Below, one piece after another: positions 12,274-43,728 of a DNA stretch of 43,728 nucleotides (positions are counted from its first letter, which is position 1; every line of letters starts with the position of its first letter). The stretch spans positions 296 through 44,023 of the forward strand of contig CAZRHO010000001.1 of NCBI GenBank assembly GCA_964599955.1, read 5' to 3'. Under the pieces are notes generated by a model. It made no database searches. It was given only the letters and a program-made list of their open reading frames with translations, and was not told where the DNA came from. Source of the stretch: an uncultured Methanosarcinales archaeon. Lineage in GTDB: Archaea > Nanobdellota > Nanobdellia > Woesearchaeales > GW2011-AR9. The position numbers were made by a program, and so were the translations under genes.

Positions 12274-12274
12274 A

Positions 12275-12520: not shown

Positions 12521-12524
12521 TGGC
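12506..12524 (+). repeat. 19-nt exact repeat AGGTGCAAGATATAATGGC (second copy at 13895-13913)
   Basis: Both copies span the family-A C-terminus (RCKI-stop) and the overlapping ATG of the next gene. Confidence 0.8.
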
Positions 12525-12771
12525 TAAAACAATAAAACACGTTGGAGAAATAAGTTGCAGACCATCAGGTAAATTTTTTAGTTGTAATTTAATCACAGAT
12601 ACAAGTAATTATGTTGAAAAGGTTGAAAGTGTATATACAGATGTAGAACAACATTTTGCGATTGGTTTTGATGGAGATAGTGCTTATGTTGAAACTATGC
12701 TTGATGACAACACTTGTGAAATAAAGAAAGGAAATAAAGGAAAAACAATAGATTGTGAGGGTGGATATTGA
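12520..12771 (+). CDS. small four-Cys protein, paralog family B
   Basis: TAATG overlap. C-x8-C ... C-x12-C spacing, as in 13381..13647. Confidence 0.6.
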   Translation: MAKTIKHVGEISCRPSGKFFSCNLITDTSNYVEKVESVYTDVEQHFAIGFDGDSAYVETMLDDNTCEIKKGNKGKTIDCEGGY

Positions 12772-12772
12772 T

Positions 12773-12943
12773 ATGGTTTACAAATTATCATCTATAAAAA
12801 GTAAATGTGTAATCAAAGATATGGCTACAATTCAACAATTATATTTGGAAATGGTTAGGAAAGGAAAAACATCATTAACTAAAAATGGGATTACAGTCAA
12901 AAGGCATAAAATTGATGCATCTTGCTTAATTAAGGACTGGTAA
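12773..12943 (+). CDS. small hypothetical protein
   Basis: Internal ATG of track ORF 12755..12943, one base after the upstream stop. Confidence 0.45.
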   Translation: MVYKLSSIKSKCVIKDMATIQQLYLEMVRKGKTSLTKNGITVKRHKIDASCLIKDW

Positions 12944-12946
12944 AAA

Positions 12947-13111
12947 ATGGAAACTGAAAAATTGATAAATGGGGAAACGGAAATGCCCGAAACAGAAGAA
13001 GCTAAACCAGTAGAAGTAGAAGAAGAAGAAGAAGAAGCTTCATCTGAAGAACCAGAGAGTTCTCCTGAAGAAGAAACTTCCGAACCCAGTCAAGAAGACA
13101 ATTCAGATTAA
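12947..13111 (+). CDS. highly acidic small protein (54 aa)
   Basis: Read from the sequence: METEKLINGETEMPETEEAKPVEVEEEEEEASSEEPESSPEEETSEPSQEDNSD. Confidence 0.45.
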   Translation: METEKLINGETEMPETEEAKPVEVEEEEEEASSEEPESSPEEETSEPSQEDNSD

Positions 13112-13127
13112 TAAAGGTTACGAAAAA

Positions 13128-13379
13128 ATGGCGAAAGAACAGAAATATAATAACATAATTAATGTTGATTGTGCAGTAACAAAAAATGGTAAGGTTTATT
13201 GCAAATTAACAGACACTAAATTTTCAACAAAAAAAACAAAATTAATAGATAATGTATTAATTTCTTCCCCTGATAGAATGGAATATAGACTTGGTTGGTT
13301 TGAAACATCATTTGATAATCCAAAAAAATGTGTAATTAAAAAAGGTATTCATAAAGAAGAAGCTATGTGGTGTAATTAA
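13128..13379 (+). CDS. small four-Cys protein, divergent family B member
   Basis: Track ORF. C-x9-C ... C-x13-C. Confidence 0.55.
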   Translation: MAKEQKYNNIINVDCAVTKNGKVYCKLTDTKFSTKKTKLIDNVLISSPDRMEYRLGWFETSFDNPKKCVIKKGIHKEEAMWCN

Positions 13380-13380
13380 A

Positions 13381-13647
13381 ATGGCAAAAAAGACAATAAA
13401 TGGGATTGATAGCATTAGTTGTTATCCTGACGGAAAAAAATTTAGGTGTGAACTTACAAAAAAAGACGGAAAAAAAGTTAATGTTAAAGAAGTAATTGCT
13501 TTATTTACAGAAACAGAATCACGAGTTCAAATAACTCCTATTAAAAAAACAGCGTTTATTTACTCCGATATGTTAAATAATACCTGCAAAGTAATCAAAT
13601 CTTCCAATGGTAATGAAATAAGTTGTAGTTATGGGGGGAAATACTAA
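13381..13647 (+). CDS. small four-Cys protein, paralog family B
   Basis: Track ORF with a TAA-A-ATG junction. Aligns with 12520..12771 over its full length. Confidence 0.6.
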   Translation: MAKKTINGIDSISCYPDGKKFRCELTKKDGKKVNVKEVIALFTETESRVQITPIKKTAFIYSDMLNNTCKVIKSSNGNEISCSYGGKY

Positions 13648-13648
13648 A

Positions 13649-13909
13649 ATGGCAAAACTAAAATGTTGGATTGAATCTCCTGCAAGAAAAAGCCAAAAAT
13701 TATGGAGAAAAAAAGGAAGTTTAGTTGCTGGAGTTAGAGAAATATTAGTAAGTAAATCAGAACAAAGTGGTATAAAAGGAAAATGGGTTGTTCACGGTAT
13801 TAAACCAAGTGGGACTATGAAACCAGTAGCAAATTTATCAAAAACAAAAAAAGAAGCAATAAGAAAAGCAGAACAATTAATGCGTAAATACGACAGGTGC
13901 AAGATATAA
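13649..13909 (+). CDS. small basic protein, paralog family A
   Basis: Internal ATG of track ORF 13631..13909. MAKLKCW...KYDRCKI. Confidence 0.6.
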   Translation: MAKLKCWIESPARKSQKLWRKKGSLVAGVREILVSKSEQSGIKGKWVVHGIKPSGTMKPVANLSKTKKEAIRKAEQLMRKYDRCKI

Positions 13910-14154
13910 TGGCAAAATTAAAATACGGAATTTCATTAATAAAAAATAAAAGAGGAGAGGTTATTGGTTGTAAAAAACCTCAAATGGAGTTAAGACATAA
14001 TAATTCAGGTTATGGGAAATCAAAAGACAACCCCTTTTATATTGAGATAAATGGGAAAGAATTGAAAAGATTTAATACACAAGATAAGGCAGTTAATTAT
14101 TTTAATAAATACAGAAAAAAAGTTAATAAAGAATTTAGGAAATGTGAAATTTAA
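13909..14154 (+). CDS. small basic protein, paralog family A (divergent)
   Basis: Internal ATG of track ORF 13897..14154, at a TAATG overlap. MAKLKYG...FRKCEI. Confidence 0.55.
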   Translation: MAKLKYGISLIKNKRGEVIGCKKPQMELRHNNSGYGKSKDNPFYIEINGKELKRFNTQDKAVNYFNKYRKKVNKEFRKCEI

Positions 14155-16373: not shown

Positions 16374-16610
16374 ATGGCGAAGAAAAAAGATATAAATTAT
16401 GTAAGTGTTGGAACTGGTTTGGCTTCACTTGGTTTTTATGGAATGGCTCTATTAGGAGAATCTACAAAGGCACAAAATAGATTATGGTGGAGTTCAGGAT
16501 TAGGATTGGCTTCTTATGTGTCATCATTCTTTGAAATTACAGCAACTCCAAAGACAAGGGCAAGAGCAAAAGCACAATTTAAGAAGTTCAAAAGAAACGG
16601 AAATAAATGA
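16374..16610 (+). CDS. small membrane protein
   Basis: Track ORF. MAKKKD... with two hydrophobic segments. Confidence 0.55.
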   Translation: MAKKKDINYVSVGTGLASLGFYGMALLGESTKAQNRLWWSSGLGLASYVSSFFEITATPKTRARAKAQFKKFKRNGNK

Positions 16611-16624
16611 TGTAGGTCTATAAT

Positions 16625-16864
16625 ATGGCTGTAATTGACGAAATATTTAGACAAGAAATTAGAAATCATTGTGATTGTCCTGAAAAGTTCCAACTAATTG
16701 ATGCTTTAGGTTCAGGATTAGGTGCTTTTTTCTTTATTAAGAATTGGAAAGAACTTAAAGATAGAAAGTTTAATGGTTGGAACGCTATGGGTTTAGGTCT
16801 TGGAGCAATTATGATGTATATCCATACTGGAAGATTTTTTTATGCTAAAAAGGTTAAAAGATAA
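16625..16864 (+). CDS. small membrane protein
   Basis: Track ORF with two hydrophobic segments. Confidence 0.55.
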   Translation: MAVIDEIFRQEIRNHCDCPEKFQLIDALGSGLGAFFFIKNWKELKDRKFNGWNAMGLGLGAIMMYIHTGRFFYAKKVKR

Positions 16865-17100
16865 TGTTCTTGTTTAATACAGGGGCAAAACACGGATTTC
16901 CTAGCTATCACGTTCTTTTTTCAGGTTTGGGTACATACACCCTAACAAAGAATAAAGTTCCAACAAACGCAATTATGGAGATTATGGGGGTACAACGTAT
17001 TCTAACAAAAAACCATTCTTTAATAGATGTAGCTTTAACTATCGGAATATTAAACTTGTTCCTTCCAAGTAATTCTTCAAAGAAACGAATTGTTTCATAA
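16864..17100 (+). CDS. possible small membrane protein
   Basis: TAATG overlap with the upstream gene fits the local pattern. However, it overlaps the convergent gene 17039..17350 by 62 nt. Confidence 0.3.
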   Translation: MFLFNTGAKHGFPSYHVLFSGLGTYTLTKNKVPTNAIMEIMGVQRILTKNHSLIDVALTIGILNLFLPSNSSKKRIVS

Positions 17101-17351: not shown

Positions 17352-18926
17352 TTACATTTTGTAGGAGTCCATTTCTTCTTTATCAGAATAAAAATCCTGT
17401 TCGTTAGGGTAAGGTATATCTCCTATGGGGGTAGGCATACCTTGAGGAGGTCCTTGTGGTGGTTGATTAGGCATAATGTGTTCGTGTTGTTGTTGCATAT
17501 CAATAGGTGGAATAAATCCTGGTGGAGGTCCTTCTTTAGTTTCTGCGTGTTGATGTTGTTCGTGTTTCATTCTTTCCAATTCCATTTTCATAAGGTCCTC
17601 TTGACTTACTGATGGGGATGGAGGTTTTGGTTGACTCCATTGTTGACTTTTTGCTTCTATCATTGGCTGTAATACGGGGGCAAGATTTTCTGCTACTGCT
17701 CCAACAGTTTTAATCACTTTATCCCAACCACCTTCTTTCTTCTCATTCATTAGGTTATCCATATCTAATTTGTCAAGTAATCTTTCTTCAAACCTATGTC
17801 TAAACTTTTCAGAGAAACCACCTAATTGTTGTTGTGTCATTCCTTGAATAATGTCATTCATTTTTTCTTGGAAGGTAACTTGTTCTAATCTTAAATTATC
17901 AATTTCACGTTTCTTAATTTCTTGTTCTAATGCTCTAATTCTTTCGTCAGAACCAGTCCTAATCTTTTCAGTTACAGCAAGATAATCTTGGAAACCATCT
18001 TTTTTCTCTGATTGTTGTTTTGACAAGTTCTCAATAACTGTTTTAAATTGTTCGTCTTTCATTTGTTGAACTAATTGTTGATTCTGTAAAGCCATTTGTT
18101 GCATTTGCTGTTGTAAGATTGCGATTTGAGGGTCAGGTTTATTTCCACCTGTCATATTCTGAAACATCTGCATTTGCATTTGCATAGCCATCTCTTTAGG
18201 CATACCAGAGAACATACTTCCCCCTTCTCCTTCTCCTAAACCTTTTGAAAGCATTTTAAGAGTATATTGTTGTTTCATTAAATCTACAATTTCTTTCATA
18301 TCAAAATTACCACTTGATTTACCATTTGGTTGATTTCCCCCCATCATATCCATTATTCTCTTGGACATTTGAGCATCCATCATCTTTTCCATTACCTTAT
18401 TCGGATTTGTATTGCTATCATTATTCATTTTGCCTACCCCATTCTGTATTCCTGATTTATACGCCTTTTCGTATATTGATTGTTGAACCAATGTTTTAAT
18501 ATCGGGAGCAACACCTGAATTAATTAACATCTGCATTAAAGCTAAAGTATCAGCTGGGAAAGGAACACTCCTACTTGAAAAGATTTTCTTTTCTCCCTTA
18601 TCATTTGTAAGGGTTGCTTCTTCTTTTGGCCTTCCTCGTTTACCTTTCTTCCCTTTTGCCTTTTTCATAGCTTTTGCTTCAACTGGATGACGATTAATTA
18701 AATGTAAATTCATTCCACCAGGAGTTTTAGCAAAAAAATCACAAAACTCGCAAGGATGTCCTTCAAAGTTTTTAGGAGTTCTTTCAATTTCCTTTTCTTC
18801 TTCTTTTTCTTTTTCTTCTTGTTGTTCTTCTTCTTGTAAAAATTTATCTAATTCAGTATTTGGATTTAATTCTGTAATGTTATCAATGTCTGTAAATTCA
18901 GTTCCTCTCGGTATTAATTCTTCCAT
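17352..18926 (-). CDS. C2H2 zinc-finger / AT-hook protein with Q,M-rich low-complexity, coiled-coil and P,Q-rich regions
   Basis: CEFCDFFAKTPGGMNLHLINRH matches C-x2-C-x12-H-x4-H. GKRGRPKEE is an AT-hook core. Also contains MQMQMQMF and QQQMQQMALQNQQLVQQM, and a PPQGPPQGMP tail. Start taken at Met6 of track ORF 17352..18941 (TAA-A-ATG junction). Confidence 0.7.
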   Translation of the reverse strand: MEELIPRGTEFTDIDNITELNPNTELDKFLQEEEQQEEKEKEEEKEIERTPKNFEGHPCEFCDFFAKTPGGMNLHLINRHPVEAKAMKKAKGKKGKRGRPKEEATLTNDKGEKKIFSSRSVPFPADTLALMQMLINSGVAPDIKTLVQQSIYEKAYKSGIQNGVGKMNNDSNTNPNKVMEKMMDAQMSKRIMDMMGGNQPNGKSSGNFDMKEIVDLMKQQYTLKMLSKGLGEGEGGSMFSGMPKEMAMQMQMQMFQNMTGGNKPDPQIAILQQQMQQMALQNQQLVQQMKDEQFKTVIENLSKQQSEKKDGFQDYLAVTEKIRTGSDERIRALEQEIKKREIDNLRLEQVTFQEKMNDIIQGMTQQQLGGFSEKFRHRFEERLLDKLDMDNLMNEKKEGGWDKVIKTVGAVAENLAPVLQPMIEAKSQQWSQPKPPSPSVSQEDLMKMELERMKHEQHQHAETKEGPPPGFIPPIDMQQQHEHIMPNQPPQGPPQGMPTPIGDIPYPNEQDFYSDKEEMDSYKM

Positions 18927-18927
18927 T

Positions 18928-19212
18928 TTATATTCCCTCAATAATTTTATTTGTTAAAAACAAAAATTTATGGTTGTCGTCAATCATCATAACGGCTGGA
19001 ACGAATCCTTCTGAAGTTATTGCGTTAAATTTCCACGAACTAATATTAATCAATTTCCCATATTTAACTATAATTGCGTACGTAACCTTTCCCACATCAC
19101 ACACAACATCAAAAGGGTCGCCACTCTTTGCAAAGAAAGGAGTATAACCTAAACTTTCAAAATATTTTATTGCTATTTCCCTTCCCATAGCACCTTTTGT
19201 TTTAGATGTCAT
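18928..19212 (-). CDS. Hjc-like PD-(D/E)xK nuclease (archaeal Holliday-junction-resolvase fold)
   Basis: KGAMGREIAIKYFESLGY...SGDPFDVVCD...AIIVKYG parallels the Hjc pattern KGxxxERElxxxLxxxGF...SG..VDlvA...EVK. Ile replaces the Glu of the ExK motif. Confidence 0.5.
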   Translation of the reverse strand: MTSKTKGAMGREIAIKYFESLGYTPFFAKSGDPFDVVCDVGKVTYAIIVKYGKLINISSWKFNAITSEGFVPAVMMIDDNHKFLFLTNKIIEGI

Positions 19213-19504: not shown

Positions 19505-20956
19505 ATGGCTAAAAAGAAAAACAATAAAGCACTTGGAATGATAGGTTTAGCACTTTTAGGTGGTTCGTTAGCGTTCTATTTGACAAAAAAGGATAAAGAA
19601 ACAAATGGAGAAAAATCAGTTGAGTGTATTTCTTCCGTAGCTGGAATGATAGTTTCCTTTGAAGTTAAAGATGAAAATTATTCTAATCCGATTTATGAAG
19701 TAGATTTTGGAGATGGTCAAAAAGATAATGTAAAGGTTGGAAGCCATACTTATGCAAAGGCTGGAGATTATAATTTTGCTGTATCAGTAACAGAAGGGGG
19801 AGATGTAACAACCACAAAAACGTGTGTAAAATTATTAACAATAACTGGAAAAGGACAACCAGGAGTTATCAAATTCAATATTGGGGCAATAGATGAAGCT
19901 GGAAAAATGTTACCAGCAAAAATAACATTACAAAGAACTTCCCCTAATCCTAAAACACTTAAAACAACTACAAACGGAGAATTAAAGTTTGATGATACAG
20001 GAGCATTAAACAAACAAGCTTATAAATCAGTAATTGAAGTTCCAACTGGTTATTCCTTACAAGAATGTTTATCAGCAGATGGTTTCTGTTTTGGAGCAGA
20101 ATGGAGTGGAGAAGTTCTTCCAGGAAATAATGTTATTGTCACATATAAGTTCGCAAAAGGTAGTGGAAATAAAAAATTATATATGGCTTACGTTACCACA
20201 GATGAGAACGATAAAGCTATTGTAGCAGATTACATAAATATTCATCAAGGAAGTTCTTGTGGGGGAGATGTTGTTTGTTCAGTTAAAAATGCTGTAAATA
20301 TTAATTGTAATACCCCAGCTGGAAAATATACAGTTTGTGCTTCAAAGAAAGGATATAAGCCAGACCCATACGTTTTAACAATCAATCATAATAAACCATT
20401 TGATAATGTTATTTCAATACCTTTAACTTCCCCTAAAACTGAAAGAATATTAATTTTGTATTGTAACACTAATTCAAATCTTGTTCCACCTTGTACAACA
20501 AGTAATTCAACTTTATTAGCTTGTCAACAAAGTTGTTTCCCAGCAAAAGGATGTAATGATTATCAGATTGCTCAATATATCAAAACAGAAATAAACAAAA
20601 TAGGAATTAAAAGCGATGTTTCGTTTTATGATACTTATAACGATTTATGGAATACAATGCCTGGTGGGAAATACCTTGACTTTTATGATGAGGTAATAGT
20701 TGTAGGCGCACACGGAGCGTGGGAAGCTTGTAATAAAGGCAATACAAATTTATACAAGGATTTAGGATTTGTTCCTATTAGTGCTTTTGTAAAAACAAAT
20801 TGGTGTCAAGTAAAAAAGAAAAACAATAAAAATTTTACATTAGTCGCTGGATGGACAGCCGAAGATACTTTTGATATGGCTAAATCTCTTGTGTTTGCTA
20901 CTAAAGCAAAAAAAACATTGAAAACAGTTATGTGTGGATTGGGAGGATTCTTTTAA
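19505..20956 (+). CDS. signal-anchored surface protein with PKD domain and S-layer-type C-terminal domain
   Basis: MAKKKNNKALGMIGLALLGG... The PKD signature is YEVDFGDGQKDNVKVGSHTYAKAGDYNFAVSV. The C-terminus has VIVVGAHGAWEAC...FTLVAGWTAEDTFDMAKSL. Confidence 0.75.
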   Translation: MAKKKNNKALGMIGLALLGGSLAFYLTKKDKETNGEKSVECISSVAGMIVSFEVKDENYSNPIYEVDFGDGQKDNVKVGSHTYAKAGDYNFAVSVTEGGDVTTTKTCVKLLTITGKGQPGVIKFNIGAIDEAGKMLPAKITLQRTSPNPKTLKTTTNGELKFDDTGALNKQAYKSVIEVPTGYSLQECLSADGFCFGAEWSGEVLPGNNVIVTYKFAKGSGNKKLYMAYVTTDENDKAIVADYINIHQGSSCGGDVVCSVKNAVNINCNTPAGKYTVCASKKGYKPDPYVLTINHNKPFDNVISIPLTSPKTERILILYCNTNSNLVPPCTTSNSTLLACQQSCFPAKGCNDYQIAQYIKTEINKIGIKSDVSFYDTYNDLWNTMPGGKYLDFYDEVIVVGAHGAWEACNKGNTNLYKDLGFVPISAFVKTNWCQVKKKNNKNFTLVAGWTAEDTFDMAKSLVFATKAKKTLKTVMCGLGGFF

Positions 20957-20957
20957 A

Positions 20958-22076
20958 ATGGCAATAATAATTACTTATAGTGGGGTTTCAGACCCTAAAA
21001 CAGGATTAGAATGGGATAAACCATCAGTAGAAACATTAAGGTTGAAATACCCAACTGCAAATGTATATAGTGGGAAAAATTCATCAGCAATAAATATTAA
21101 TGCTAATTTATCAGAAGTTAATTCTTTTGTAAATAGTTTTCCAGTAGGTTCAACAATTTTCTGTGTTGGTGGAGAAGATGTAAATGGTATTGCTAAAAAT
21201 CTAACAAAAGGAAAAGGTCTTGGATTATTTGATGCAACTCCTCAAGCTTTTGATGGTAGAGGATTTATTAAATCTGTATCATATAACGGAAGAACAATTA
21301 TGGTATTAACTGGTGGATGTTGTAAAACTCCAGTAGAAAAATCAAGAATCGGAACAATTAATTCAACTTATTTTATATTAAATAACAATATATCAATTAC
21401 TGGTGGAAAAAATGTTGCAGTTCCAGAGTTAGCAGATAGATTAGGATTATATTCAGTAGATTTTGGAAATGTTGGTTTATCAGAAGCATTACAAAAGTGT
21501 AAAGAAGGATTTGTGGAATTTGCTTTAACTCAAAATTTATTAGACCAAGGTCATAAACCAGAAGAATTTGAAGTTTTAACTTGTTACATTGAAGGAACAA
21601 AACTTTATGCGTTAGTTGTTGAGTTTGGAAGTCCAGCAATTCCAATGATTATATGGGGATTGATTATTGTGGGTTCTTCAATATTGACAACTGTTTCTGC
21701 TTACAAGGGATTTGATTGGTTGAAACAAAGAGAAATTTCAGGTGTGGAACAAGCAAGACAAGAAGCAATCAAAAAACCTTATGAGGCAATGGTTAAAAGT
21801 TGTGAACAAGACCCAAAACTATGTGGAACTCCACAAGACATTAAAGATATGATGGATAAAACAAGTATTCATCTTAAATCTCAAGAAAGTATTATTAAAT
21901 GGGAAGCTAAAAAGGCTGAAGATGATAAATCACTTAGCGACCAATTTATGGATATAGCAAAAGGAATGGCTTTAGTTGGTGGAGTAGGTATTGGTATTTA
22001 TTTCCTTTTCCAGTCAGGATTGTTTCAGGCTGGTGCAAGTTCAGTTAAAAGAAAGATTAATAAAGGTAAAAAATAG
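20958..22076 (+). CDS. membrane-anchored surface protein
   Basis: Internal ATG of track ORF 20934..22076, at a TAAAATGGC junction. The N-domain has IFCVGGEDVNGIAKNL...IMVLTGG. TM segments occur near aa 225-250 and at the C-terminus. Confidence 0.65.
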   Translation: MAIIITYSGVSDPKTGLEWDKPSVETLRLKYPTANVYSGKNSSAININANLSEVNSFVNSFPVGSTIFCVGGEDVNGIAKNLTKGKGLGLFDATPQAFDGRGFIKSVSYNGRTIMVLTGGCCKTPVEKSRIGTINSTYFILNNNISITGGKNVAVPELADRLGLYSVDFGNVGLSEALQKCKEGFVEFALTQNLLDQGHKPEEFEVLTCYIEGTKLYALVVEFGSPAIPMIIWGLIIVGSSILTTVSAYKGFDWLKQREISGVEQARQEAIKKPYEAMVKSCEQDPKLCGTPQDIKDMMDKTSIHLKSQESIIKWEAKKAEDDKSLSDQFMDIAKGMALVGGVGIGIYFLFQSGLFQAGASSVKRKINKGKK

Positions 22077-22084
22077 GAGAAATT

Positions 22085-22891
22085 ATGATGGTAAATAAAA
22101 GACGAACAATTGTTGCAGGGTTATTATTAGCAATAGCTGGAATTGGAGCTTATATTTTCACACAAAAAGGCAAAGACGAAGAAGTAGTTATTATTCCAAT
22201 GAAACATAACGAATGTGTAGGTGGAATTTGTAAAGAAGTTCCAGGTTTTGGTATTTCTACTTGTAATTTAAATTCAGAATGTAAACATACAAAATGCGTA
22301 TTAGGTATTTGTCAAGTAGTTAATTCTCCTGGAGTAGATGAATGTAAAAATATGAGTGAATGTGTCCATAACGAATGTTCAGGTGGGAAATGTGTATCTT
22401 ATATTGGGAAAGGGGAAGATGAGTGTGATAAAGATTCATTATGTTCTTATAAAAAATGTGATGGGATTTCTTGTAAAGATACTCCTGTTGATGTAATAGG
22501 TCAAAAAGACGAATGCGATTTTAATGCTGATTGTTTACCAGAAAATTTAAAATATATTACAGACGTTGCTATATTACCTAAAGTAAATGCTGATGTAGAT
22601 ATTTTTGTTACTATGCAAAATCCTTTATATGAGCAATCATCTTTCAGAATCCAAGTAATAAATGAAGCTGGACATATTATTCCTTTAGATAAACCAGATT
22701 TTCTGGGAATGAAATGGTTACCACCACTTGCACCAAAACAAAAAAAAGCATATTGGATGACATCTCAAAACACTCCATATTCAATGTTTGATTTAGGAGC
22801 ATTTTTCACAATTAGAATATCAAGGATGGTTAAAGGAGTTCAAACTATCGTGGAAACAAGTAAACCAATAAAAGGAAACATAATAATATGA
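22085..22891 (+). CDS. signal-anchored protein with four Cys-knot repeats and a beta-sandwich domain
   Basis: AGGAG lies upstream. Four units of C-x4-C-x10(13)-C-x5-C-x4 span aa 44-150. The C-terminal half is beta-rich. Confidence 0.7.
   Translation: MMVNKRRTIVAGLLLAIAGIGAYIFTQKGKDEEVVIIPMKHNECVGGICKEVPGFGISTCNLNSECKHTKCVLGICQVVNSPGVDECKNMSECVHNECSGGKCVSYIGKGEDECDKDSLCSYKKCDGISCKDTPVDVIGQKDECDFNADCLPENLKYITDVAILPKVNADVDIFVTMQNPLYEQSSFRIQVINEAGHIIPLDKPDFLGMKWLPPLAPKQKKAYWMTSQNTPYSMFDLGAFFTIRISRMVKGVQTIVETSKPIKGNIII
22214..22534 (+). repeat. four tandem 27-aa Cys-knot units (protein-level repeat)
   Basis: C-x4-C-x10-C-x5-C-x4 repeats regularly from Cys44 to Cys150 of the 22085 ORF. Confidence 0.75.
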
Positions 22892-23118
22892 AGAAAGCAA
22901 CATTATATACAATTCCAGGATGTCCAGGATGTGCTGATGCAAAAAAGGAAATAGCTAAAAGGAAAAAGGCTGGAACGTGTTGTTATGACTTCAAGATTGT
23001 TAATGCAAACAAACTCAAAAATCCTCCAAAGAATTTAAGTGAAGTTCCAGCAGTTAAAGTTGATGGAAAAATTAAAGACTTTTGGAAAGTAATAAATAAA
23101 TGTAAGGTAGGTAAATAA
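22888..23118 (+). CDS. thioredoxin/glutaredoxin-fold protein (CPGC active site)
   Basis: 76 aa. ATLYTIPGCPGCADAKKE places CxxC after beta1, and VPAVKVDGK is a cis-Pro-type motif. ATGA overlap with the Cys-repeat gene. Confidence 0.65.
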   Translation: MKKATLYTIPGCPGCADAKKEIAKRKKAGTCCYDFKIVNANKLKNPPKNLSEVPAVKVDGKIKDFWKVINKCKVGK

Positions 23119-27628: not shown

Positions 27629-27647
27629 AACCAAAACATTTATATAT
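27629..27647 (+). promoter_or_regulatory. BRE/TATA element identical to copy 2
   Basis: AACCAAAACATTTATATAT is a 19-nt exact match to 19461-19479. Here the ATG (27706) lies about 59 nt downstream. Confidence 0.5.
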
Positions 27648-27705
27648 GACAAAAACAAACTTTTTTTTACAAAACAATAAATAAATTGTGAGGTTAAGAA
27701 ATAAA

Positions 27706-28155
27706 ATGGCAAAAGCAGATATTTTACCAGTAGTAGGTGGTGGAGTTGCAGGTCTTGGTGTTGGAGTTTTAGGAGATTGGGTTTCCAATAAGTATCCTCA
27801 AAAATCAGCAGATGGGAAAACAACTTACCAACCAAAGGACAAAGATTTTTCATACTTTAAAGATAAGTCTTTACTAATTAACGCAGGTGTTGGAGTATTA
27901 GGACTTGTAGCAATGAGTATGCAAAGAAACTTTGGAATTTCAAGTGATGTAGCTTTAGGAGCAGGAGTAGCAGGAACAGTAGCTTTAACAAAAGCAATTG
28001 GTCGTGTTTACAGTGTAATGCAAGAAAAAGATTCAACATCTGGAAATGAATGGGCTAACTATGCACGTCAAAGAGCAATGCAACAGCATTACGCTTACCG
28101 AAGAGCAAGTTTACCAAACACACAAATTGAATCAGGCTTATTTAACATTAAATAA
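27706..28155 (+). CDS. Gly-rich membrane protein
   Basis: Internal ATG of track ORF 27688..28155. MAKADILPVVGGGVAGLGVGVLG... Confidence 0.6.
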   Translation: MAKADILPVVGGGVAGLGVGVLGDWVSNKYPQKSADGKTTYQPKDKDFSYFKDKSLLINAGVGVLGLVAMSMQRNFGISSDVALGAGVAGTVALTKAIGRVYSVMQEKDSTSGNEWANYARQRAMQQHYAYRRASLPNTQIESGLFNIK

Positions 28156-28240
28156 GTTAACAAAAAAAAATATGACCGATTCGCAACGCTAACCCTTAAA
28201 TAAGGAAGGTAGAGATTGATTGGTCAGGAGAAGATATAAA

Positions 28241-28738
28241 ATGCCAGTAGCAGATTTACAGTTGAAGGGATATGCCCTTCAGGCAGTGCAGAAAGCACTC
28301 CAAATGATTAGCCAAAAGGCTCAAACAACTTTAGGAAGTGATTTTGAATTACGTGATATGCGACCTCAAGATTTAACTTTCACCAACCCAACCTTTAGCT
28401 TCAGTTTAACAGCAACAAGCAGTTATCACGCTATTGTTGATGACGGAACTATTGGAAACAACCGATGGATTGCTATCTACGGATTACGAACAAACCAAAC
28501 AGCAGAATTAATTTCAGGATTAAAAGTAACTGCTGGTGGTGCATTGAAAATGGATAGAAACATTGAGTGGGTATCAGCAACTCAAGATAAATCCCTTTAC
28601 TTTGACCCAGTTATCGTAGAGCAAAACACTCTGATTAAGATTGAAGGTTACAACGTAGGAACAACCACCGATACAGGTTACGTTTTAGTTTTCTTGGGAA
28701 TTGTAGCAGAGAAGAAAGGACAAGTTCTTGCACCATAA
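28241..28738 (+). CDS. beta-rich putative virion structural protein (capsid candidate)
   Basis: Internal ATG of track ORF 28220..28738, with CAGGAG upstream. Visibly less AT-rich codon usage than neighbours. A long oligo-T terminator lies downstream. Confidence 0.45.
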   Translation: MPVADLQLKGYALQAVQKALQMISQKAQTTLGSDFELRDMRPQDLTFTNPTFSFSLTATSSYHAIVDDGTIGNNRWIAIYGLRTNQTAELISGLKVTAGGALKMDRNIEWVSATQDKSLYFDPVIVEQNTLIKIEGYNVGTTTDTGYVLVFLGIVAEKKGQVLAP

Positions 28739-28748
28739 GTGCATTAAC

Positions 28749-28773
28749 TTTTTTTTTATTTTTTTATTTTTTT
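28749..28773 (+). terminator. long T-rich terminator
   Basis: T9-A-T7-A-T7 after the stop at 28738. Confidence 0.5.
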
Positions 28774-28817
28774 GACCTCATTGGTCACACACACAAAAAC
28801 ATACGAGGTAACGTAAA

Positions 28818-29321
28818 ATGGGAAATTACATAGATTATGAGAAAGGTTTCGCTGTTGGAGATGTTCTTAAAGTTAGGAATTGTTTTATGCGTATTAAAGG
28901 CAAAGACAGCATAAGAATTTACAAGGACTTTGATTCAACAGCGACAGGGGTTACAAGTTCAGATACTTCAATTGACGAACTTAATCCAAAATATGGTACA
29001 GAAATATACCAAATAGTTCAAGTAGTACCTTCACACAATGTTCAAGTGTTTGTTAAACAACCAGCTTCAACATTAAGATGGGGAACAAATCTTGCACCTT
29101 CTATTGGATTTGTATCTGATAGAATTAGTTCTTATGATGGTGGAGAAACAAATAACATCTTCATAACAAACTACCAACAACCAGTTCTTCAAGTTAAAAA
29201 TACAACTTTGAAAACTATTTCAGCACCAAGAGTATTCTTTTTCGGTTGGAAATACCAAATTGAAGAATTAAAAGATTATTCAGGAGCGTACACACCAGTT
29301 CAGTACGGAGGGTTTGATTAA
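28818..29321 (+). CDS. beta-rich putative virion structural protein
   Basis: Track ORF with GAGGT upstream. The sequence alternates hydrophobic and polar residues. Confidence 0.45.
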   Translation: MGNYIDYEKGFAVGDVLKVRNCFMRIKGKDSIRIYKDFDSTATGVTSSDTSIDELNPKYGTEIYQIVQVVPSHNVQVFVKQPASTLRWGTNLAPSIGFVSDRISSYDGGETNNIFITNYQQPVLQVKNTTLKTISAPRVFFFGWKYQIEELKDYSGAYTPVQYGGFD

Positions 29322-29323
29322 AA

Positions 29324-29764
29324 ATGGGACTTAAAAAACAAATAACTTCATTTGATAGAACAGAAGAGTATGATTCAGTTTTATCAACTTGGAAAAGGAA
29401 AATTAAACCTAACAATTTAATGAACCTTACAACTGCAGTAACAACGACTACAACTGGAGATGTTTCTTTAATAACCACAGTAGTTGGTGCTAACGAAGAA
29501 GTTTACATTTATGGTGTATCATCAGCAATTGGAACATCAGGGATTGCTTTAGCAATTCAGGTAGATAGTGCAAACGTATTTACAATTAATTCAAATATGT
29601 CAAACACTTTATCAAATCCAGATGCACCAATTGCAGTAGTTCAAGCAAGTTCAACAATTGGTTTGGTGGTATTAGAAACAACTGTAACTGACGAAACATT
29701 CATTGTAAATTTAGTTGCAAAGATTGAACCATTACCAGCAAAAGCTGAACCACAATTAGGTTAA
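29324..29764 (+). CDS. beta-rich putative virion structural protein
   Basis: Track ORF. T/V/A/S-rich. Followed by a long oligo-T terminator. Confidence 0.45.
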   Translation: MGLKKQITSFDRTEEYDSVLSTWKRKIKPNNLMNLTTAVTTTTTGDVSLITTVVGANEEVYIYGVSSAIGTSGIALAIQVDSANVFTINSNMSNTLSNPDAPIAVVQASSTIGLVVLETTVTDETFIVNLVAKIEPLPAKAEPQLG

Positions 29765-38034: not shown

Positions 38035-38213
38035 TGGCAAAAAGATTTAAATGGAAGTTATGGGGAAAGAAAGTTGGTATTAGTGCTATTCAAATTATTG
38101 TTCTTGGATTAATTTCATATACTACAAATGACCCTAATTGGATGTTTTTAGTTCCAGTATTAGAAGGAGGAAGAAATATCTTAAAACACAAGTATGGTTT
38201 CAAAAAGTTGTAG
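38034..38213 (+). CDS. small membrane protein (59 aa)
   Basis: Read from the sequence, with TAATG overlap. MAKRFKWKLWGKKVGISAIQIIVLGLISY... Confidence 0.4.
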   Translation: MAKRFKWKLWGKKVGISAIQIIVLGLISYTTNDPNWMFLVPVLEGGRNILKHKYGFKKL

Positions 38214-38649
38214 TCGTTATAGTAAAACAAAATGCGAAGAAACTGGTGGGTGTAGTTGGAACTCAAACGAAAATAAATGTCAAAAAAGTTCTAAAGCTTG
38301 GTTACTCTTATTTTTATTAGCACCCTTATTATTTTTAAGGGGTGGAAAGAAATGTGATACTTCTTTAACTTTATCTGTATGTTTCCCAAAAACTGCAAGT
38401 ATTTCAATTTCAGGAGCAAATAGAGGTCCTGTCATTGTAGATGAATTTATCCCAGTAACTAAAAGGTTTGTATTACCTGGTGCTGATGTTTATACAATTA
38501 CAGCTAAAGCAAAGAATTACATTGACATAGTTAGAATTGTTCAGTTTGAAGAATGTGATGAGAGAGGGTTCTGTTTAAGGTTTTATAATGTAGGTCAAAA
38601 CCCAATTCCTAACCAAGAATTTTATGTTTGTAATGGTGTTTGTCAATAG
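38194..38649 (+). CDS. membrane-anchored protein with pre-TM Cys4 motif and beta-sandwich domain
   Basis: Track ORF. C-x7-C-x5-C-x8-C (aa 6-29), then WLLLFLLAPLLFL, then a beta-rich domain. Confidence 0.6.
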   Translation: MVSKSCSRYSKTKCEETGGCSWNSNENKCQKSSKAWLLLFLLAPLLFLRGGKKCDTSLTLSVCFPKTASISISGANRGPVIVDEFIPVTKRFVLPGADVYTITAKAKNYIDIVRIVQFEECDERGFCLRFYNVGQNPIPNQEFYVCNGVCQ

Positions 38650-39730: not shown

Positions 39731-39771
39731 CCAAAAGTTTTATATATTAAAAAATCAGTATTTTTTATTGT
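39729..39771 (+). promoter_or_regulatory. conserved TATA-box leaderless promoter (copy 5)
   Basis: AACCAAAAGTTTTATATATTAAAAAATCAGTATTTTTTATTGT, then ATG 39772. Confidence 0.6.
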
Positions 39772-41700
39772 ATGGTTCGTAAAAAGAAAGAAAAAGAAAG
39801 GGATTCTGGTGGTTTACTATTTCTATTAAGTTTAGTAGGTTCAGGAGTTGCCTTATATTCATATTTCAAAACTCCAAAGAATGCTGTATTAGATATTCCA
39901 GGATGTACTAATCCCATAGCAAATAATTTCAATCCTTTAGCCAATAAGGATGATGGAAGTTGTATTGTAGAAGGTTGTACAGACCCTAATGCTAAAAACT
40001 TTGACACTAAAGATACTTTAGATAACGGAACTTGTATTCAACCTATTCTTGGTTGTACTGACCCAAAGGCTGACAATTTTAACCCTTTAGCAACAAAGGA
40101 TGATGGAAGTTGTGTGATTTCGGGGTGTACTGACCCTAACGCTACTAATTTTAATCCTTTAGCTACCAAAGATGATGGTAGTTGTTTTATTGAAGGTTGT
40201 ACTAATCCAAAGGCTACTAACTTTAATCCTATTGCAACAAAGGATGATGGTAGTTGTATTATTGAAGGTTGTACAGACCCTAATGCTATTAACTTTGACC
40301 CAACAGCAACTAAAGATGATGGTAGTTGTTTAATGTGTAAAGAAGGAGATTTAAATTGTGGGAATGGAGATATTCTTGAAAAATGTTCAAACGGATTATG
40401 GGTAAAAGAACAACATTGTACTTATGGTTGTGAAAATAATGCTTGTAAACCACCTTTCCATTTAACTTGTGATGGAAATAAATGTGTTGAAACTATTGGA
40501 TTAGGACCTGATGACCCTGGTTGTAAGAATACAGGACAAGATTGTTGTAAAGGTAATTCTTCTCAATGTAAAGGGAACTCATTAGAAACTTGTAAGAGTG
40601 GTCAATGGAGTGGTCAATCTTGTGCTTACGGATGTCAAAATAATAAATGTAATATGTGTTCTCCTCTATCTAAAAAGAATGAAGAACCTTGTTTAACTGA
40701 TATAAGTAAGATTGGGAAATGGGATGAGTGTTCTGCTGATGGTCAATCTTGGTTACAGAAAGGAATTATATGTCCTCAACCAGAATGTCAACCGAATGGA
40801 ATTACTCAATGTGATGGAAATTCAGTTCAAAAATGTGTAAATTTCAAATGGCAAGGATTAAAATCTTGTGCTAACGGATGTATCGGGGGGGAATGTGCGC
40901 ATTTAGCTTGTAGTAATGGAACTTGTAAAAAAGTTAAAGGGGATGTTCCAAACTTTAAAGGATGTTTTTCAGAAGGTTCAGAATGTTGTACTTTTGATAA
41001 CGATACAAGATGTAAAGGTAATGGTCAAGAAACTTGTAAGAATGGTCAATGGGGTAGTGGTCAATCTTGTCAATATGGATGTTCTAATGATAAATGTAAT
41101 TCAAAACCAGTATGTAAATCTCATAGTTACCAAAGTTGTGGAAAGGATGGAGATGTTCATTGGTTTGATTCTTGCGATAACCAAGAAGAAGAAACACAAG
41201 ATTGTAAAGGATATGGTTGTCAAAATAATAAATGTAAAGACCCTCCTAAAGAAAACGTAGTAATTGTATGTTGTTCAAAAAGTTCAGGGGATTGCAATAT
41301 TGCTTATATTATGGAAACAGGATTTCAAAATATGGGATGGACTATTCCAAATAATCCACAATCAAGTGGAACTGTTAAAGTAGTTCAACCTCAAACTTTA
41401 AATTGGTTTAAGAATACTGATTGGTACAAAAATGCTGATATTGTTGTCGTAGTTGGTGGTCAACAAGCTTGGGATGAATGTACAGATAACTTTTGGAGTG
41501 AATGGTTTAAAGATGTAGATAATGTTTTTGATAAAAAAGATATGTTCCAACGTAAAACTTCAGGGGGAAGATGTTATTATGGTATTTCAGGATGGGATGC
41601 TTCACAGACAGCTTACATTTCAAGTTGCTTCCTTCAACAAGTAAGTAAAAATAAAACTGATATATGTGATATTTCAAGTTCAATATGTGACCCTAAATAA
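39772..41700 (+). CDS. large signal-anchored Cys-rich repeat surface protein
   Basis: Conserved leaderless promoter upstream. N-terminal TM. Six GCTDPNAxNFNPLATKDDGSC units, then five or more C..G.W....C.YGC.NN.C modules. The C-terminal domain has VVVVGGQQAWDEC...GISGWDASQT. Confidence 0.8.
   Translation: MVRKKKEKERDSGGLLFLLSLVGSGVALYSYFKTPKNAVLDIPGCTNPIANNFNPLANKDDGSCIVEGCTDPNAKNFDTKDTLDNGTCIQPILGCTDPKADNFNPLATKDDGSCVISGCTDPNATNFNPLATKDDGSCFIEGCTNPKATNFNPIATKDDGSCIIEGCTDPNAINFDPTATKDDGSCLMCKEGDLNCGNGDILEKCSNGLWVKEQHCTYGCENNACKPPFHLTCDGNKCVETIGLGPDDPGCKNTGQDCCKGNSSQCKGNSLETCKSGQWSGQSCAYGCQNNKCNMCSPLSKKNEEPCLTDISKIGKWDECSADGQSWLQKGIICPQPECQPNGITQCDGNSVQKCVNFKWQGLKSCANGCIGGECAHLACSNGTCKKVKGDVPNFKGCFSEGSECCTFDNDTRCKGNGQETCKNGQWGSGQSCQYGCSNDKCNSKPVCKSHSYQSCGKDGDVHWFDSCDNQEEETQDCKGYGCQNNKCKDPPKENVVIVCCSKSSGDCNIAYIMETGFQNMGWTIPNNPQSSGTVKVVQPQTLNWFKNTDWYKNADIVVVVGGQQAWDECTDNFWSEWFKDVDNVFDKKDMFQRKTSGGRCYYGISGWDASQTAYISSCFLQQVSKNKTDICDISSSICDPK
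39901..40329 (+). repeat. six tandem 24-26-aa GCTDPNAxNFNPLATKDDGSC units
   Basis: Read directly from the translation of the 39772 ORF. The DNA copies are diverged. Confidence 0.8.
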
Positions 41701-41702
41701 AT

Positions 41703-43728
41703 ATGGCGAAAAAAAAGAAAGATAAATCTTGTAAAGTTTTAAGTAAAACTCAATGTGATGATAAGTTTACTTGTAAGTGGGATGAGGATGAAAAAAGATG
41801 TGTTCCTAATTGGTTTCCATTAGCTTTATTTTTAGGGGGAATGGCTGGTGCTATGGCTTTATTACCAGGAGCAAAGGCACAACCACAAGGACCTATTGAA
41901 GGATGTATGGATAAAGATGCAAGAAATTATAATCCAAAGGCAACCATTCAAACAACTACTAAATGTATTTTTACTGCTCAAAGTTGTAAAAAGAATGGGA
42001 AATTTTATTACAAAGGAAGATGTATTTTTCCCGATGCTAAAGACCCAGCTTTCCCTGGACCTTGTAAACCAAATGAAATATTAAAAGATAGTGTAACTTT
42101 ATGTCCTGATGGAAAGAAATTAAGCGAATGGTTACAATGTGGTCAAGATGGTGGAGATTACTGGTATATGAACCAGTTATGTCCTGGAGAATCTAAATGT
42201 AAGGCTGGAAACATTGAAGTTATTTCTTGGTGTAAAGATGGAAAGACCCCTTCTGAATTTTATGTATGTAATGGAGATGGTACTGCTAAAACGTATATTT
42301 ACTCTCCTTGTCCTTGTGACCCACAAAATTTAATTAATTGTCCTAATCCTGATGATTGTAAGAAACAAGGTGGATTTTATTATGGTGACGTTTGTAATCC
42401 TAAACCATTTTGTAAACCAGATTCAATTCTGAATATTAGTCCTATTGAGCTTTGTGCAGATGGAAGTATTAAAAAGAACGCAATAGTATCTTGTAATAAA
42501 GAAGGAACAGGAATTGTTGAAGAAATTGAAGATATTGGATGTTGTGAAGCACTTACTCCTGAATTATGTGGAAACAAAGGAGATTGTTTAAAGAATGGTG
42601 GATTTTGGTATGATGACAAATGTAACAAAAACCCTAAACCCCCAGAGTGTGACCAAGCACATCCTGATTTATGTACAGACCCTAATGATTGTGCTATGCA
42701 AGGAATGTATTGGTATCAAGACAAATGTCATAAAGACCAGCTATGTAAACCAGACGAAACAATTTGTTTTTTAGGAAATGCGTTCTTATGTAATAATGTA
42801 GGAACAGGATTAATAGACAAAGGTCCAGCAAAATTATGTTGTGACATTATGGGTTGGTATTTTTATGATGGGAAATGTAACAAAACTCCTAAAAAGATTT
42901 GTAACCCAAAAGATTTGAAACAAGGAAGTGAAGTGTATTGTCCTAAAAGTCCAACTGTTCTTTCAGAATGGGAGGAGTGTTCAGCAGATGGATATAAGTG
43001 GGAAAATAAATCTCAAAAATGTCCTGACGTTTGTGATGCACAACACCTTGACTTATGTACAGACCCTAACTCTTGTAAAAACTTTGGTGGGTTTTGGTAT
43101 AATGATAAATGTAATTTAAATCCGTTATGTAATGCTGGAGATGTATTGTGTGTTAATGGGGTTGGTTATCAATGTTTACCAAATCAATCAGAATATAATT
43201 TACTTGGAGAAACTAAAGATTGTTGTGATAAAATTAATGGTTATTGGTATGGTGGAAAATGTAACCAAAATCCGTTATGTAAAACAGGAGAACACAAACC
43301 AGGAAGTGATATTAAATGTTTAACAGATGGAAGTAAATTATCATCTTGGGAAATTTGTAATGCTACTCATACAGGGTGGGATAAAAAAACAGGAACTTGT
43401 CCTAAATGTGATGCACAAAACCTTGACTTATGTACAGACCCTAATGATTGTAAAAACTTTGGTGGTTTCTGGTATAACGGAAAGTGTAACTTAAATCCAT
43501 TTTGTAGTAAAGGAGAAATTAAAGATAATAAAATAACTAAAACTCCTTGTTGGAATGGTGTTGATAATGCTAAAGATGAGTGGGAAGAATGTAATACTGA
43601 TTTAACTGGATGGGAATCTAAATCTAAATCTTTTTCTTGTCCTCCTCAACCTCAATGTGATAAGAATAATTTAGACTTATGTACAGACCCTAATGATTGT
43701 AAAAACTTTGGTGGTTTCTGGTATAACG
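41703..43728 (+). CDS. very large Cys-rich repeat surface protein, 3' partial (runs off the window)
   Basis: Not in the track because it has no stop. Translated by hand from ATG 41703: 675 codons without a stop. Pre-TM Cys4 motif, TM, then nine or more C..C...GGFWY..KCN modules. Confidence 0.8.
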   Translation, partial: MAKKKKDKSCKVLSKTQCDDKFTCKWDEDEKRCVPNWFPLALFLGGMAGAMALLPGAKAQPQGPIEGCMDKDARNYNPKATIQTTTKCIFTAQSCKKNGKFYYKGRCIFPDAKDPAFPGPCKPNEILKDSVTLCPDGKKLSEWLQCGQDGGDYWYMNQLCPGESKCKAGNIEVISWCKDGKTPSEFYVCNGDGTAKTYIYSPCPCDPQNLINCPNPDDCKKQGGFYYGDVCNPKPFCKPDSILNISPIELCADGSIKKNAIVSCNKEGTGIVEEIEDIGCCEALTPELCGNKGDCLKNGGFWYDDKCNKNPKPPECDQAHPDLCTDPNDCAMQGMYWYQDKCHKDQLCKPDETICFLGNAFLCNNVGTGLIDKGPAKLCCDIMGWYFYDGKCNKTPKKICNPKDLKQGSEVYCPKSPTVLSEWEECSADGYKWENKSQKCPDVCDAQHLDLCTDPNSCKNFGGFWYNDKCNLNPLCNAGDVLCVNGVGYQCLPNQSEYNLLGETKDCCDKINGYWYGGKCNQNPLCKTGEHKPGSDIKCLTDGSKLSSWEICNATHTGWDKKTGTCPKCDAQNLDLCTDPNDCKNFGGFWYNGKCNLNPFCSKGEIKDNKITKTPCWNGVDNAKDEWEECNTDLTGWESKSKSFSCPPQPQCDKNNLDLCTDPNDCKNFGGFWYN
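43425..43728 (+). repeat. 55-nt exact direct repeat inside the last ORF (43425-43479 and 43674-43728)
   Basis: GACTTATGTACAGACCCTAATGATTGTAAAAACTTTGGTGGTTTCTGGTATAACG occurs twice, 249 nt apart. A diverged third copy lies at about 43049-43103. Confidence 0.8.

Follow-up and report, generated by a model that had tools for sequence, protein, structure and literature searches.

The pleolipovirus spike proteins and the fusellovirus terminal-fibre protein VP4 are receptor-binding spikes or fibres of enveloped or lipid-containing archaeal viruses, and mosaic, cysteine (Cys)-rich, membrane-anchored adhesin-like proteins are a known design. Here we describe two adjacent genes of this design, ORF1 and ORF2 (ORF; open reading frame), which lie at the downstream end of a 43,728-nt stretch of contig CAZRHO010000001.1 (hereafter the window, meaning the whole stretch analysed; ~31% G+C, with genes almost all on the + strand). 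Our preferred reading, held with modest confidence, is that the two products belong to a new archaeal mobile element and work outside the cell, in adhesion or host recognition. Two of their module types are widespread though uncurated; what is new is the combination of the modules, a private super-repeat of ORF2 with a GGFWY core, the family of the C-terminal domain (CTD) of ORF1, and a carrier unrelated to the current viral and genomic collections. The surprise lies more in the carrier and in the mix of modules than in the design principle.

Both genes are real at the coordinates proposed in an earlier note that was made from the letters of the window (Table 1). The neighbouring methyltransferase protein, used as the query, retrieved six public contigs from marine metagenomes, and the sister copy of ORF1 retrieved five, four of which were identical to the records found with the methyltransferase. 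ORF1 was intact at 642 aa (99% identical) in five other, independent assemblies and ORF2, which runs off the window, was complete at 1451 aa in at least four; thus the downstream sequence called for in the earlier note is at hand, and the frameshifts or stops that it had named as a ground for refutation did not appear on this resequencing check. The full-length ORF2 used in the following analysis was taken from one sister contig (L001:12999-17354), which aligns gap-free with 15,024 nt of the window at 99.88% identity. Because the ATG of ORF2 lies 3 nt beyond the stop codon of ORF1 and ORF2 has no promoter motif of its own, the two genes are probably co-transcribed. Both products are modular and Cys-rich with an N-terminal hydrophobic anchor or signal segment, and because of this segment they are probably extracytoplasmic.

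The Cys content was 9.7% in ORF1 (62 of 642 residues), 9.9% in the window part of ORF2 (67 of 675) and 7.4% in full-length ORF2, with 2.05% in the remaining 37 genes of the window, an enrichment well beyond chance. The value for ORF1 and the window part of ORF2 is about one residue in ten, lower than the one in eight estimated earlier, and the peak value (11.9%) is confined to ORF1 aa 44-495. The number of Cys residues past the hydrophobic segment is even in both proteins (62 in ORF1 and 104 in ORF2).

ORF1 is composed of an anchor, six G units, an array of small modules in the order B-H-B-A-B-H-B-B2, and the CTD, an alpha/beta domain. The anchor segment contains the top Kyte-Doolittle 19-mer of the protein (1.71) and is predicted to be a type II signal anchor or an uncleaved signal peptide; a matching N-terminal style is found in the window ORFs 14144, 15027, 15520, 19505 and 22085 and in proteins of the related contigs L009 and L010 (see below). 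The G units stand in tandem (aa 44-64, 68-88, 94-114, 118-138, 142-162 and 166-186) with the pattern G-C-T-[DN]-P-x-A-x-N-F-[ND]-P-x-A-x-K-D-D-G-S-C, and Tandem Repeats Finder reported them with a period of 72 nt (3.9 copies, 80% matches, score 325). The five B modules (four B1 and one B2) all end in C.[YN]GC..(N/G/D).C, and B1 and B2 align with each other. The membrane anchor, the six GCTDP units and the five or more modules ending in C..G.W.G..C.YGC were all described in the earlier note, and all of them are present in ORF1.

ORF2 begins with a basic N-terminus, followed by a Cys4 motif, a hydrophobic segment, a degenerate G unit, super-repeats composed of an A and a B part, an Ig-like stretch (~aa 895-1000), a canonical G unit (aa 1029-1050, past the window end) and a beta-rich C-terminal region of ~340 aa with just six Cys. 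The Cys4 motif is spaced like the first three Cys of the B module in ORF2 (C-x7-C-x5-C-x11-C). By the AxA rule, the AKAQP sequence after the hydrophobic segment is a possible signal-peptidase site, the putative cleavage falling between AKA and QP; the same AKAQP also follows the hydrophobic segment of the window ORF 14144. In the super-repeats, the A part consists of variable Cys loops with W.EC....GW and the B part has the form C.....L.C.DP.DC...GG[FY]WY..KCN; shortened 50-aa versions are scattered among the full-size ones. The window holds nine complete GGFWY cores and one truncated core, and the whole of ORF2 holds ~14, in agreement with the nine or more modules counted earlier; the Cys4 motif before the membrane segment and the single CMDKDARNYNPKAT unit of the window part were likewise found as described. 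ORF1 and ORF2 also have a sub-module in common, as the earlier note had it: full-length ORF2 matched ORF1 by BLASTP with an E value of 6e-13, and the WDECSADGQSW and WEECSADGYKW units align in this match. In addition, aa 8-73 of ORF2 matched the product of ORF 38194 (E 7e-5), which on this similarity is a paralogue of the ORF2 N-terminus.

No match to either protein was found in Pfam, PHROGs or NCBIfam. A search with full-length ORF1 gave 4081 matches, every one of them via the ~150-aa region of the G units. Many of the matching proteins carry PF18962 (the Por or type IX secretion system (T9SS) C-terminal sorting domain), those with a named carrier belong to the Bacteroidota (Flavobacteriales or Crocinitomicaceae), the period of 24 aa is identical, and many hold 6-16 units as counted with a regular expression; the occurrence of the motif in secreted proteins of marine Bacteroidota, as stated in the earlier note, is thus verified. 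All six ORF1 units and the two ORF2 units fit the expression G-C-[TM]-[DN]-x-x-A-x-N-[YF]-[ND]-x-x-A-x-x-D-[DN]-G-[ST]-C. PF18962 itself is absent from ORF1 and ORF2 in the Pfam search, and the C-terminus of ORF1 is an unrelated alpha/beta domain. Judged by these comparisons, ORF1 and ORF2 have the Bacteroidota repeat in common with the carriers, not the carrier family: the consensus, the two bounding Cys, the 24-aa period and the tandem runs are alike, with ORF1 aa 44-188 being 45-60% identical, whereas in ORF1 the six units stand behind an N-terminal anchor, in an archaeal-type element, without the T9SS domain or a Bacteroidota context. The repeat is uncurated; neither Pfam nor NCBIfam has a model for it, and no solved structure contains it. 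Among 50,697 phage records searched with tblastn, GCTDP units were found in only one viral genome, 'Marine virus AG-345-P14' (MH319765.1, 63113-63307), which came from a single amplified seawater cell and matches aa 58-169 of ORF1 at 51% identity. Homology to known receptor-binding or tail-fibre proteins was not found: the phage records gave this repeat match alone, PHROGs gave none for ORF1 and ORF2, and Foldseek against BFVD gave none for the CTD.

In word-index searches, aa 188-642 of ORF1 and full-length ORF2 matched themselves alone. A full HMMER scan of 1.84 billion representatives detected 69 relatives of the B modules, for which Pfam has no model, at E<=1e-3. The matches define two mutually alignable variants of one 6-Cys module, 'C..G..rC.Gn.le.C.nG.W.....C.yGC.nG.C' and 'C.sH....C..GDvyWfDSCGn.e.....C.yGC.nG.C', and the carriers also contain CARDB, PKD, PEGA, Laminin_G_3, FG-GAP and CarboxypepD_reg domains, which are extracellular contexts. 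One carrier (P0129) is encoded on a contig with the archaeal ribosomal proteins L24e, S28e and L7Ae; two other carrier contigs were uninformative. These large surface proteins of uncultured prokaryotes (e.g., P0125, P0127, P0129 and P0134) are like ORF1 in the Cys framework, the signature residues (35-45% identity), the tandem arrays and the comparable extracellular partner domains, and unlike it in that ORF1 interleaves H and A modules, ends in the family CTD and is carried by a mobile element rather than a chromosome. For the ORF2 modules, no relatives were found outside their own element family or cluster.

Structures were predicted for the module array and for the CTD in two models, as a MAFFT alignment of the whole of ORF1 put fragments on wrong modules. 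AlphaFold2 was run on an alignment of 22 module arrays for the array (ORF1 aa 189-495) and on a six-sequence alignment for the CTD. Of the single modules, whose prediction the earlier note had proposed, the B modules were modelled with confidence (predicted local distance difference test (pLDDT), 88-96) as compact beta units, in which a three-stranded antiparallel sheet is followed by a short hairpin and paired Cys positions are conserved as 6-Cys frameworks; the H and A modules stayed below a pLDDT of 55. Foldseek with the array model found nothing in PDB at E<=1e-3. The predicted topology of the B module is like that of CBM14/tachycitin (6 Cys, three- and two-stranded sheets), and the CBM14 of human chitotriosidase (5hbf_B) was matched over 37 columns (root-mean-square deviation 2.0, 22% identity, E 3.8, probability 0.44); since the Cys spacing differs and the match is non-significant, it is a lead only.

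The CTD was confidently modelled as a flavodoxin-like alpha/beta domain (pLDDT 83; predicted template modelling score, 0.84) with three layers, five strands and flanking helices. It had no Foldseek match at E<=1e-3 in PDB or BFVD and no relative in Pfam or NCBIfam; the best sub-threshold PDB matches were a GH138 accessory domain, MoaB, CinA and flavodoxins (TM-score, 0.3-0.45). The S-layer-type domain that the earlier note listed for ORF1 is not supported: Pfam and NCBIfam gave nothing even at E 0.1-1, and S-layer and cell-wall anchoring domains (SLH, CWB2 and archaeal S-layer) matched the CTD neither by sequence models nor by fold. The CTD is the constant part of a family in which the other parts vary (PKD, metzincin and Cys arrays); it is common to at least five proteins with differing heads. 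It is C-terminal in the window ORF 19505-20956 and occurs in two proteins of L010, one protein of L009, and a hyper-Cys-rich protein of the GC-rich contig L012. On contig L013, one ORF (432-1475) combines a metzincin-type protease motif (HEILHAIGCSH) with A, B and H modules, and the CTD stands in a separate ORF ~430 nt downstream (1910-2263), a split that possibly results from a frameshift; the family thus carries enzymatic heads too.

The comparison of the window with L001 located all of the variation in the repeats. The 18 nucleotide differences fall, without exception, in the repeats of ORF1 and ORF2, and none was found in the other 11 kb. Five are in the GCTDP units of ORF1 (39995-40232) and 13 are at 43684-43718, where the B-module copy of the window resembles the preceding repeat (the window copy at 43650-43728 is 90% identical to the preceding repeat of L001). 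These differences reflect either conversion between repeats or assembly ambiguity or chimerism. The repeat number was constant across the assemblies, and the DNA copies of the repeats are old (60-85% identical). The fast evolution asserted in the earlier note stands in so far as every difference is in a repeat, and falls in so far as the copy number does not change and the copies are old. A recent expansion of the repeats was considered as well and was ruled out on the 60-85% identity of the copies.

Several features tie the two genes to the rest of the window. A motif of the form (A)ACCAAAA-N-TTTAWATATTAARAAA...TTTTT lies upstream of ORF1 and at least four other genes, with exact copies of TTTAWATATTAARAAA at 11638, 19471, 25987(-), 27101 and 39739 and related sites at 27639 and 37340; the 16-nt pattern at <=2 mismatches gave 10 matches vs. 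4.3 expected. The TATA centre is ~29.5 nt before the ATG of ORF1 and 26.5-30.5 nt before the start codon at all five exact copies, none of which has a Shine-Dalgarno motif, whereas operon-internal genes carry GGAGG-like Shine-Dalgarno motifs. Such a distance from TATA to start, with no Shine-Dalgarno motif, is the signature of archaeal leaderless transcripts, and an archaeal transcription signal (a motif like the transcription factor B recognition element (BRE) and TATA box) is thus present at five or more genes. A Bacteroidota host was rejected on the same geometry; the ~3 nt between the end of the T-rich box and the ATG leave too little room for a -7 box, and the distance from TATA to ATG fits archaeal leaderless transcription. 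The earlier note called this promoter late; since it also precedes a Dam methylase, a nucleotidyltransferase and further functionally unrelated genes, we read it from its distribution as a general promoter of the element, not demonstrably a late one. Because of this promoter, the low G+C content at third codon positions (0.15 in ORF1 and 0.17 in ORF2 vs. 0.215), the anchor style and the module types, all of which they have in common with other genes of the element, ORF1 and ORF2 are native to it, as the earlier note had assumed.

Immediately upstream of the two genes is a cluster of nucleotide-sugar and glycosyltransferase genes, sugar-epimerase genes included. The window and its continuation further encode several methyltransferases (Dam-type and N4/N6-type), an amidoligase, a nucleotidyltransferase and a RelA/SpoT-like protein; ORF 26050 has a weak match to the class-I CCA-enzyme domain. 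There are many small ORFans and many proteins with a 'MAKKK...LLLLLGG' N-terminus, and no tRNAs, Rfam RNAs, rRNA or housekeeping genes were found in the window. The conserved block at 19505-23118 has modules in common with ORF1 (CTD, H and anchor) and has counterparts in L009 (3860-6479) and L010 (6801-11504). The related contigs are L009 and L011 from groundwater (44% G+C) and L010 from another metagenome (33% G+C; habitat unstated, possibly marine), L010 and L011 having come from a single metagenome scan; their core block comprises 19505-like, 20934-like, mosaic Cys-rich, 22085-like, glutaredoxin-like and 27131-like genes. The genes for the CTD adjoin that of the 20934 family in the window, L009 and L010; for the 20934 family, which is conserved across the elements, no relative of known function or fold was found. 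One of the L010 proteins is a smaller mosaic of 523 aa, with an anchor, a G unit, H modules, one GGFWW module, an Ig-like part and the CTD. The glutaredoxin-like gene directly follows the Cys-rich H-module gene, also in the related element, and its product could be a thiol-disulfide helper for the Cys-rich proteins. Positions of the features are given in Table 1.

Table 1. Positions of the features of ORF1, ORF2 and associated genes in the window
Feature	Window position	Strand	Protein position	Description
ORF1	39772..41700	+		642 aa, 62 Cys
ORF1 hydrophobic segment	39808..39867	+	ORF1 aa 13-32	20 residues, after basic N-terminus (MVRKKKEKERDS)
G units	39901..40335	+	ORF1 aa 44-188	six units, 24-26 aa, two Cys each
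Small Cys-module array	40336..41235	+	ORF1 aa 189-488	
B1 modules			ORF1 aa 189-225, 259-293, 339-375, 406-442	6-Cys
B2 module			ORF1 aa 448-488	6-Cys
H modules			ORF1 aa 233-258, 380-405	4-Cys, C.G..C...G....C....C
A module			ORF1 aa 296-339	..W[DE]ECSADG..W..
CTD	41236..41697	+	ORF1 aa 489-642	154 aa, Cys-poor alpha/beta
ORF2	41703..43728	+		leading 675 of 1451 aa; reading frame continues past window end
Cys4 motif	41730..41801	+	ORF2 aa 10-33	C-x7-C-x5-C-x8-C, before hydrophobic segment
ORF2 hydrophobic segment	41811..41870	+	ORF2 aa 37-56	then AKAQP
Degenerate G unit	41901..41966	+	ORF2 aa 67-88	GCMDKDARNYNPKATIQTTTKC; the CMDKDARNYNPKAT unit
A+B super-repeats	41967..43728	+	ORF2 aa 89-675	~75-85 aa, 8 Cys
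Promoter-like element	39732..39771	+		purine-rich BRE-like stretch and TATA box TTTATATATTAAAAAA at 39739-39754
Small Cys-rich protein (ORF 38194)	38194..38649	+		151 aa, 6.6% Cys; Cys4 (aa 6-29), then hydrophobic segment
Conserved gene block	19505..23118	+		
ORF 19505	19505..20956	+		anchor, PKD, CTD
ORF 20934	from 20934	+		380 aa, C-terminal hydrophobic segments, 37-42% identical across elements
ORF 22085	from 22085	+		anchor and 4 H modules
Glutaredoxin-like ORF	22888..23118	+		76 aa, CPGC motif (CGWC in L010, 11271-11504)

Under the preferred reading, ORF1 and ORF2 would be transcribed together, and their products would be exported and stand on the surface, stabilised by disulfides; the uncultivated archaeal mobile element that encodes them (~46-50 kb) would most likely be a virus whose particle contains lipid. 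Each protein would be inserted in the membrane via its N-terminal hydrophobic segment (a signal anchor in ORF1; in ORF2, maybe cleaved after AKA), and long ectodomains would project like beads on a string, each small module being locked by 1-3 disulfides. The small modules may act as rigid spacers and as low-affinity multivalent binding units, with specific contacts made at the non-repetitive ends, namely the CTD of ORF1 and the Cys-poor, beta-rich C-terminus of ORF2. Because the CTD is constant, the heads vary and the genes stand beside that of the conserved 380-aa membrane protein, we infer a docking role for the CTD, by which all members of the family would attach to one partner; this may be the membrane protein (the 20934 family). 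The variable modules would bind the target, e.g., the host S-layer or glycans, and the neighbouring glycosyltransferase, sugar-epimerase and glutaredoxin-like genes may serve glycosylation and thiol chemistry. The host-recognition fibres proposed in the earlier note are plausible in view of the architecture and the context. The viral nature is suggested by the style of the gene content, by contigs of 41.7-49.6 kb that recur at 99.9% identity in several samples, and by two independent contigs (L001 and L003) whose right ends fall within ~40 nt; as for circularity, the downstream end of L001 shows no overlap with the window start.

The following points weigh against this reading. No capsid, portal, terminase, packaging ATPase, integrase or replication gene was recognised with Pfam or PHROGs, and no relatives of the element were found in INPHARED (megablast and tblastn), in IMG/VR, or in 185,579 GTDB species genomes with two different queries, so that the term virus draws on the style of the gene content. 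None of the modelled modules had a structural match to a known receptor-binding or carbohydrate-binding fold in Foldseek. An N-terminal anchor combined with a C-terminal docking domain leaves the topology of a spike unclear, and the Cys4 motif sits, unexplained, across the hydrophobic segment from all other modules of ORF2. The glutaredoxin-like protein is below the Pfam cut-off (E 0.004) and has no signal peptide.

The lack of recognised virion genes also enters the best surviving alternative, which we consider rather unlikely: ORF1 and ORF2 would stand on the outside of the carrier cell instead of on a particle, the element being a plasmid, a virus of the chronic or temperate kind or a mobile element of some other type, and they would remodel the cell surface for cell-cell attachment (e.g., DPANN-type episymbiont-host contact), aggregation or superinfection exclusion. 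The closest relatives of the B modules are indeed chromosomal cell-surface proteins, and the large glycan-synthesis cluster of the element is typical of surface remodelling; in addition, relatives of the element occur in groundwater, where episymbiotic archaea are common. The present data suit this reading and the virion reading alike. Conjugation, partition and replication genes are not found either, and the many tiny ORFans on one strand, together with several DNA methyltransferases, look more viral than plasmid-like.

The chromosomal location of those B-module relatives bears on a further possibility, that the contig derives from a small archaeal chromosome (as an island for surface proteins and glycosylation) and the two proteins are ordinary host adhesins. 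A host would be expected to have the identical type of promoter, B modules occur elsewhere in giant Cys-rich surface proteins encoded on chromosomes, and no relative is present in IMG/VR. We nevertheless regard this as improbable: ~49 kb contain no ribosomal, tRNA, translation or central-metabolism gene, the two queries found no relative among the GTDB species genomes, the right ends of L001 and L003 nearly coincide, and the gene density and the small ORFans are element-like. Very little credence is given to metal binding (zinc or iron-sulfur) by the Cys clusters of a cytoplasmic or intravirion protein with no extracellular disulfides, for which one may cite the Cys4 motif (N-terminal of the hydrophobic segment and beside the basic N-terminus, thus probably on the cytoplasmic side by the positive-inside rule) and the nearby glutaredoxin-like protein without a signal peptide, as all the other modules come after the hydrophobic export segment, G and B modules occur in secreted proteins, the modules have no His/Cys spacings typical of zinc fingers, and the B modules are predicted to be compact beta units with conserved 6-Cys frameworks.

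Returning to adhesion or host-recognition proteins of a mobile element, a bolder form of this reading is put forward tentatively, as a possible but doubtful extension. ORF1 and ORF2 would be attachment spikes of an unrecognised lineage of archaeal viruses, marine and of groundwater and devoid of known hallmark genes, built combinatorially from private modules and modules captured across domains. The private toolbox would comprise the CTD docking domain, the H, A and GGFWY modules and the Cys4 pre-membrane motif; the captured modules would be the repeat of Bacteroidota T9SS cargo and the 6-Cys surface modules of the archaeal host. The CTD would then represent a new type of docking fold, through which exchangeable heads are attached to one conserved membrane partner, and variation would arise by repeat conversion.

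Elsewhere in the window, the following were noted. Small paralogues of ~85-92 aa at 12257-14154 form two alternating families, 'MAKLKCW...RCKI' (12257 and 13631) and 'MAK..I...SC.P.GK...C' (12508, 13128 and 13381). Small proteins (78-88 aa) with two hydrophobic helices are encoded at 16374-17100, 5316-5582 (which matches DUF4190) and 27688-28155; they resemble the capsid proteins of spindle-shaped archaeal viruses in size and hydrophobicity, with no homology found, and to name those of 16374-17100 as virion candidates is a guess. Three successive ORFans of ~150-170 aa at 28220-29764, in the most G+C-rich part of the window (0.34), follow a long T-rich intergenic stretch and could be highly expressed structural proteins; they had no sequence match in Pfam, PHROGs or PDB. 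Among the few minus-strand genes, 17352-18941 encodes a 529-aa protein with an acidic N-terminus, a C2H2-like zinc finger (CEFC...H....H) and low-complexity stretches rich in Q, M and P. At 506-2129, an amidoligase (PF12224) is followed by a protein starting with MC...., which had no match; the arrangement is reminiscent of the pairs of an amidoligase and an N-terminal-nucleophile amidotransferase seen in phages.

If the preferred reading is true, the two genes mark the machinery with which an archaeal mobile element, one that is missed by the current virus-detection resources, contacts its host. The locus would also give a handle on three uncurated but widespread extracellular modules (the 24-aa repeat of Bacteroidota, the 6-Cys B modules and the CTD) and would show that secreted proteins of bacteria, surface proteins of archaea and an archaeal element have modules in common. 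At least four of the sequence families could be made into profile models for annotation.

As for known systems with a comparable build, the eukaryotic mosaics of EGF, Sushi/CCP, LDLR-A and PSI modules are like ORF1 and ORF2 in that tandem modules of 25-45 aa, with 2-3 disulfides each, make up an elongated ectodomain. Sequence searches of PDB (with ORF1, ORF2, 28220, 28818, 19505 and a profile of the 20934 family) gave only the match of PKD and an echo of Sushi in ORF1 H2+B1d (phmmer, E 0.07, factor H-related protein 2), which is non-significant. Membership in Sushi/CCP is not supported, given this E value and the null results of Pfam and Foldseek, and as Sushi, EGF and PSI modules gave no Foldseek or Pfam match, the likeness is one of analogy, not of membership. 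The literature on Cys-rich proteins of archaeal viruses and on DPANN surface proteins was also consulted, and nothing relevant was found in it. Compared with the pleolipovirus spikes and fusellovirus VP4, ORF1 and ORF2 show no similarity in sequence or fold, and those spikes are not Cys-rich repeat arrays. It is in their working that ORF1 and ORF2 would be alike, each being a large, membrane-anchored, probably glycosylated attachment protein whose gene lies beside those of structural membrane proteins.

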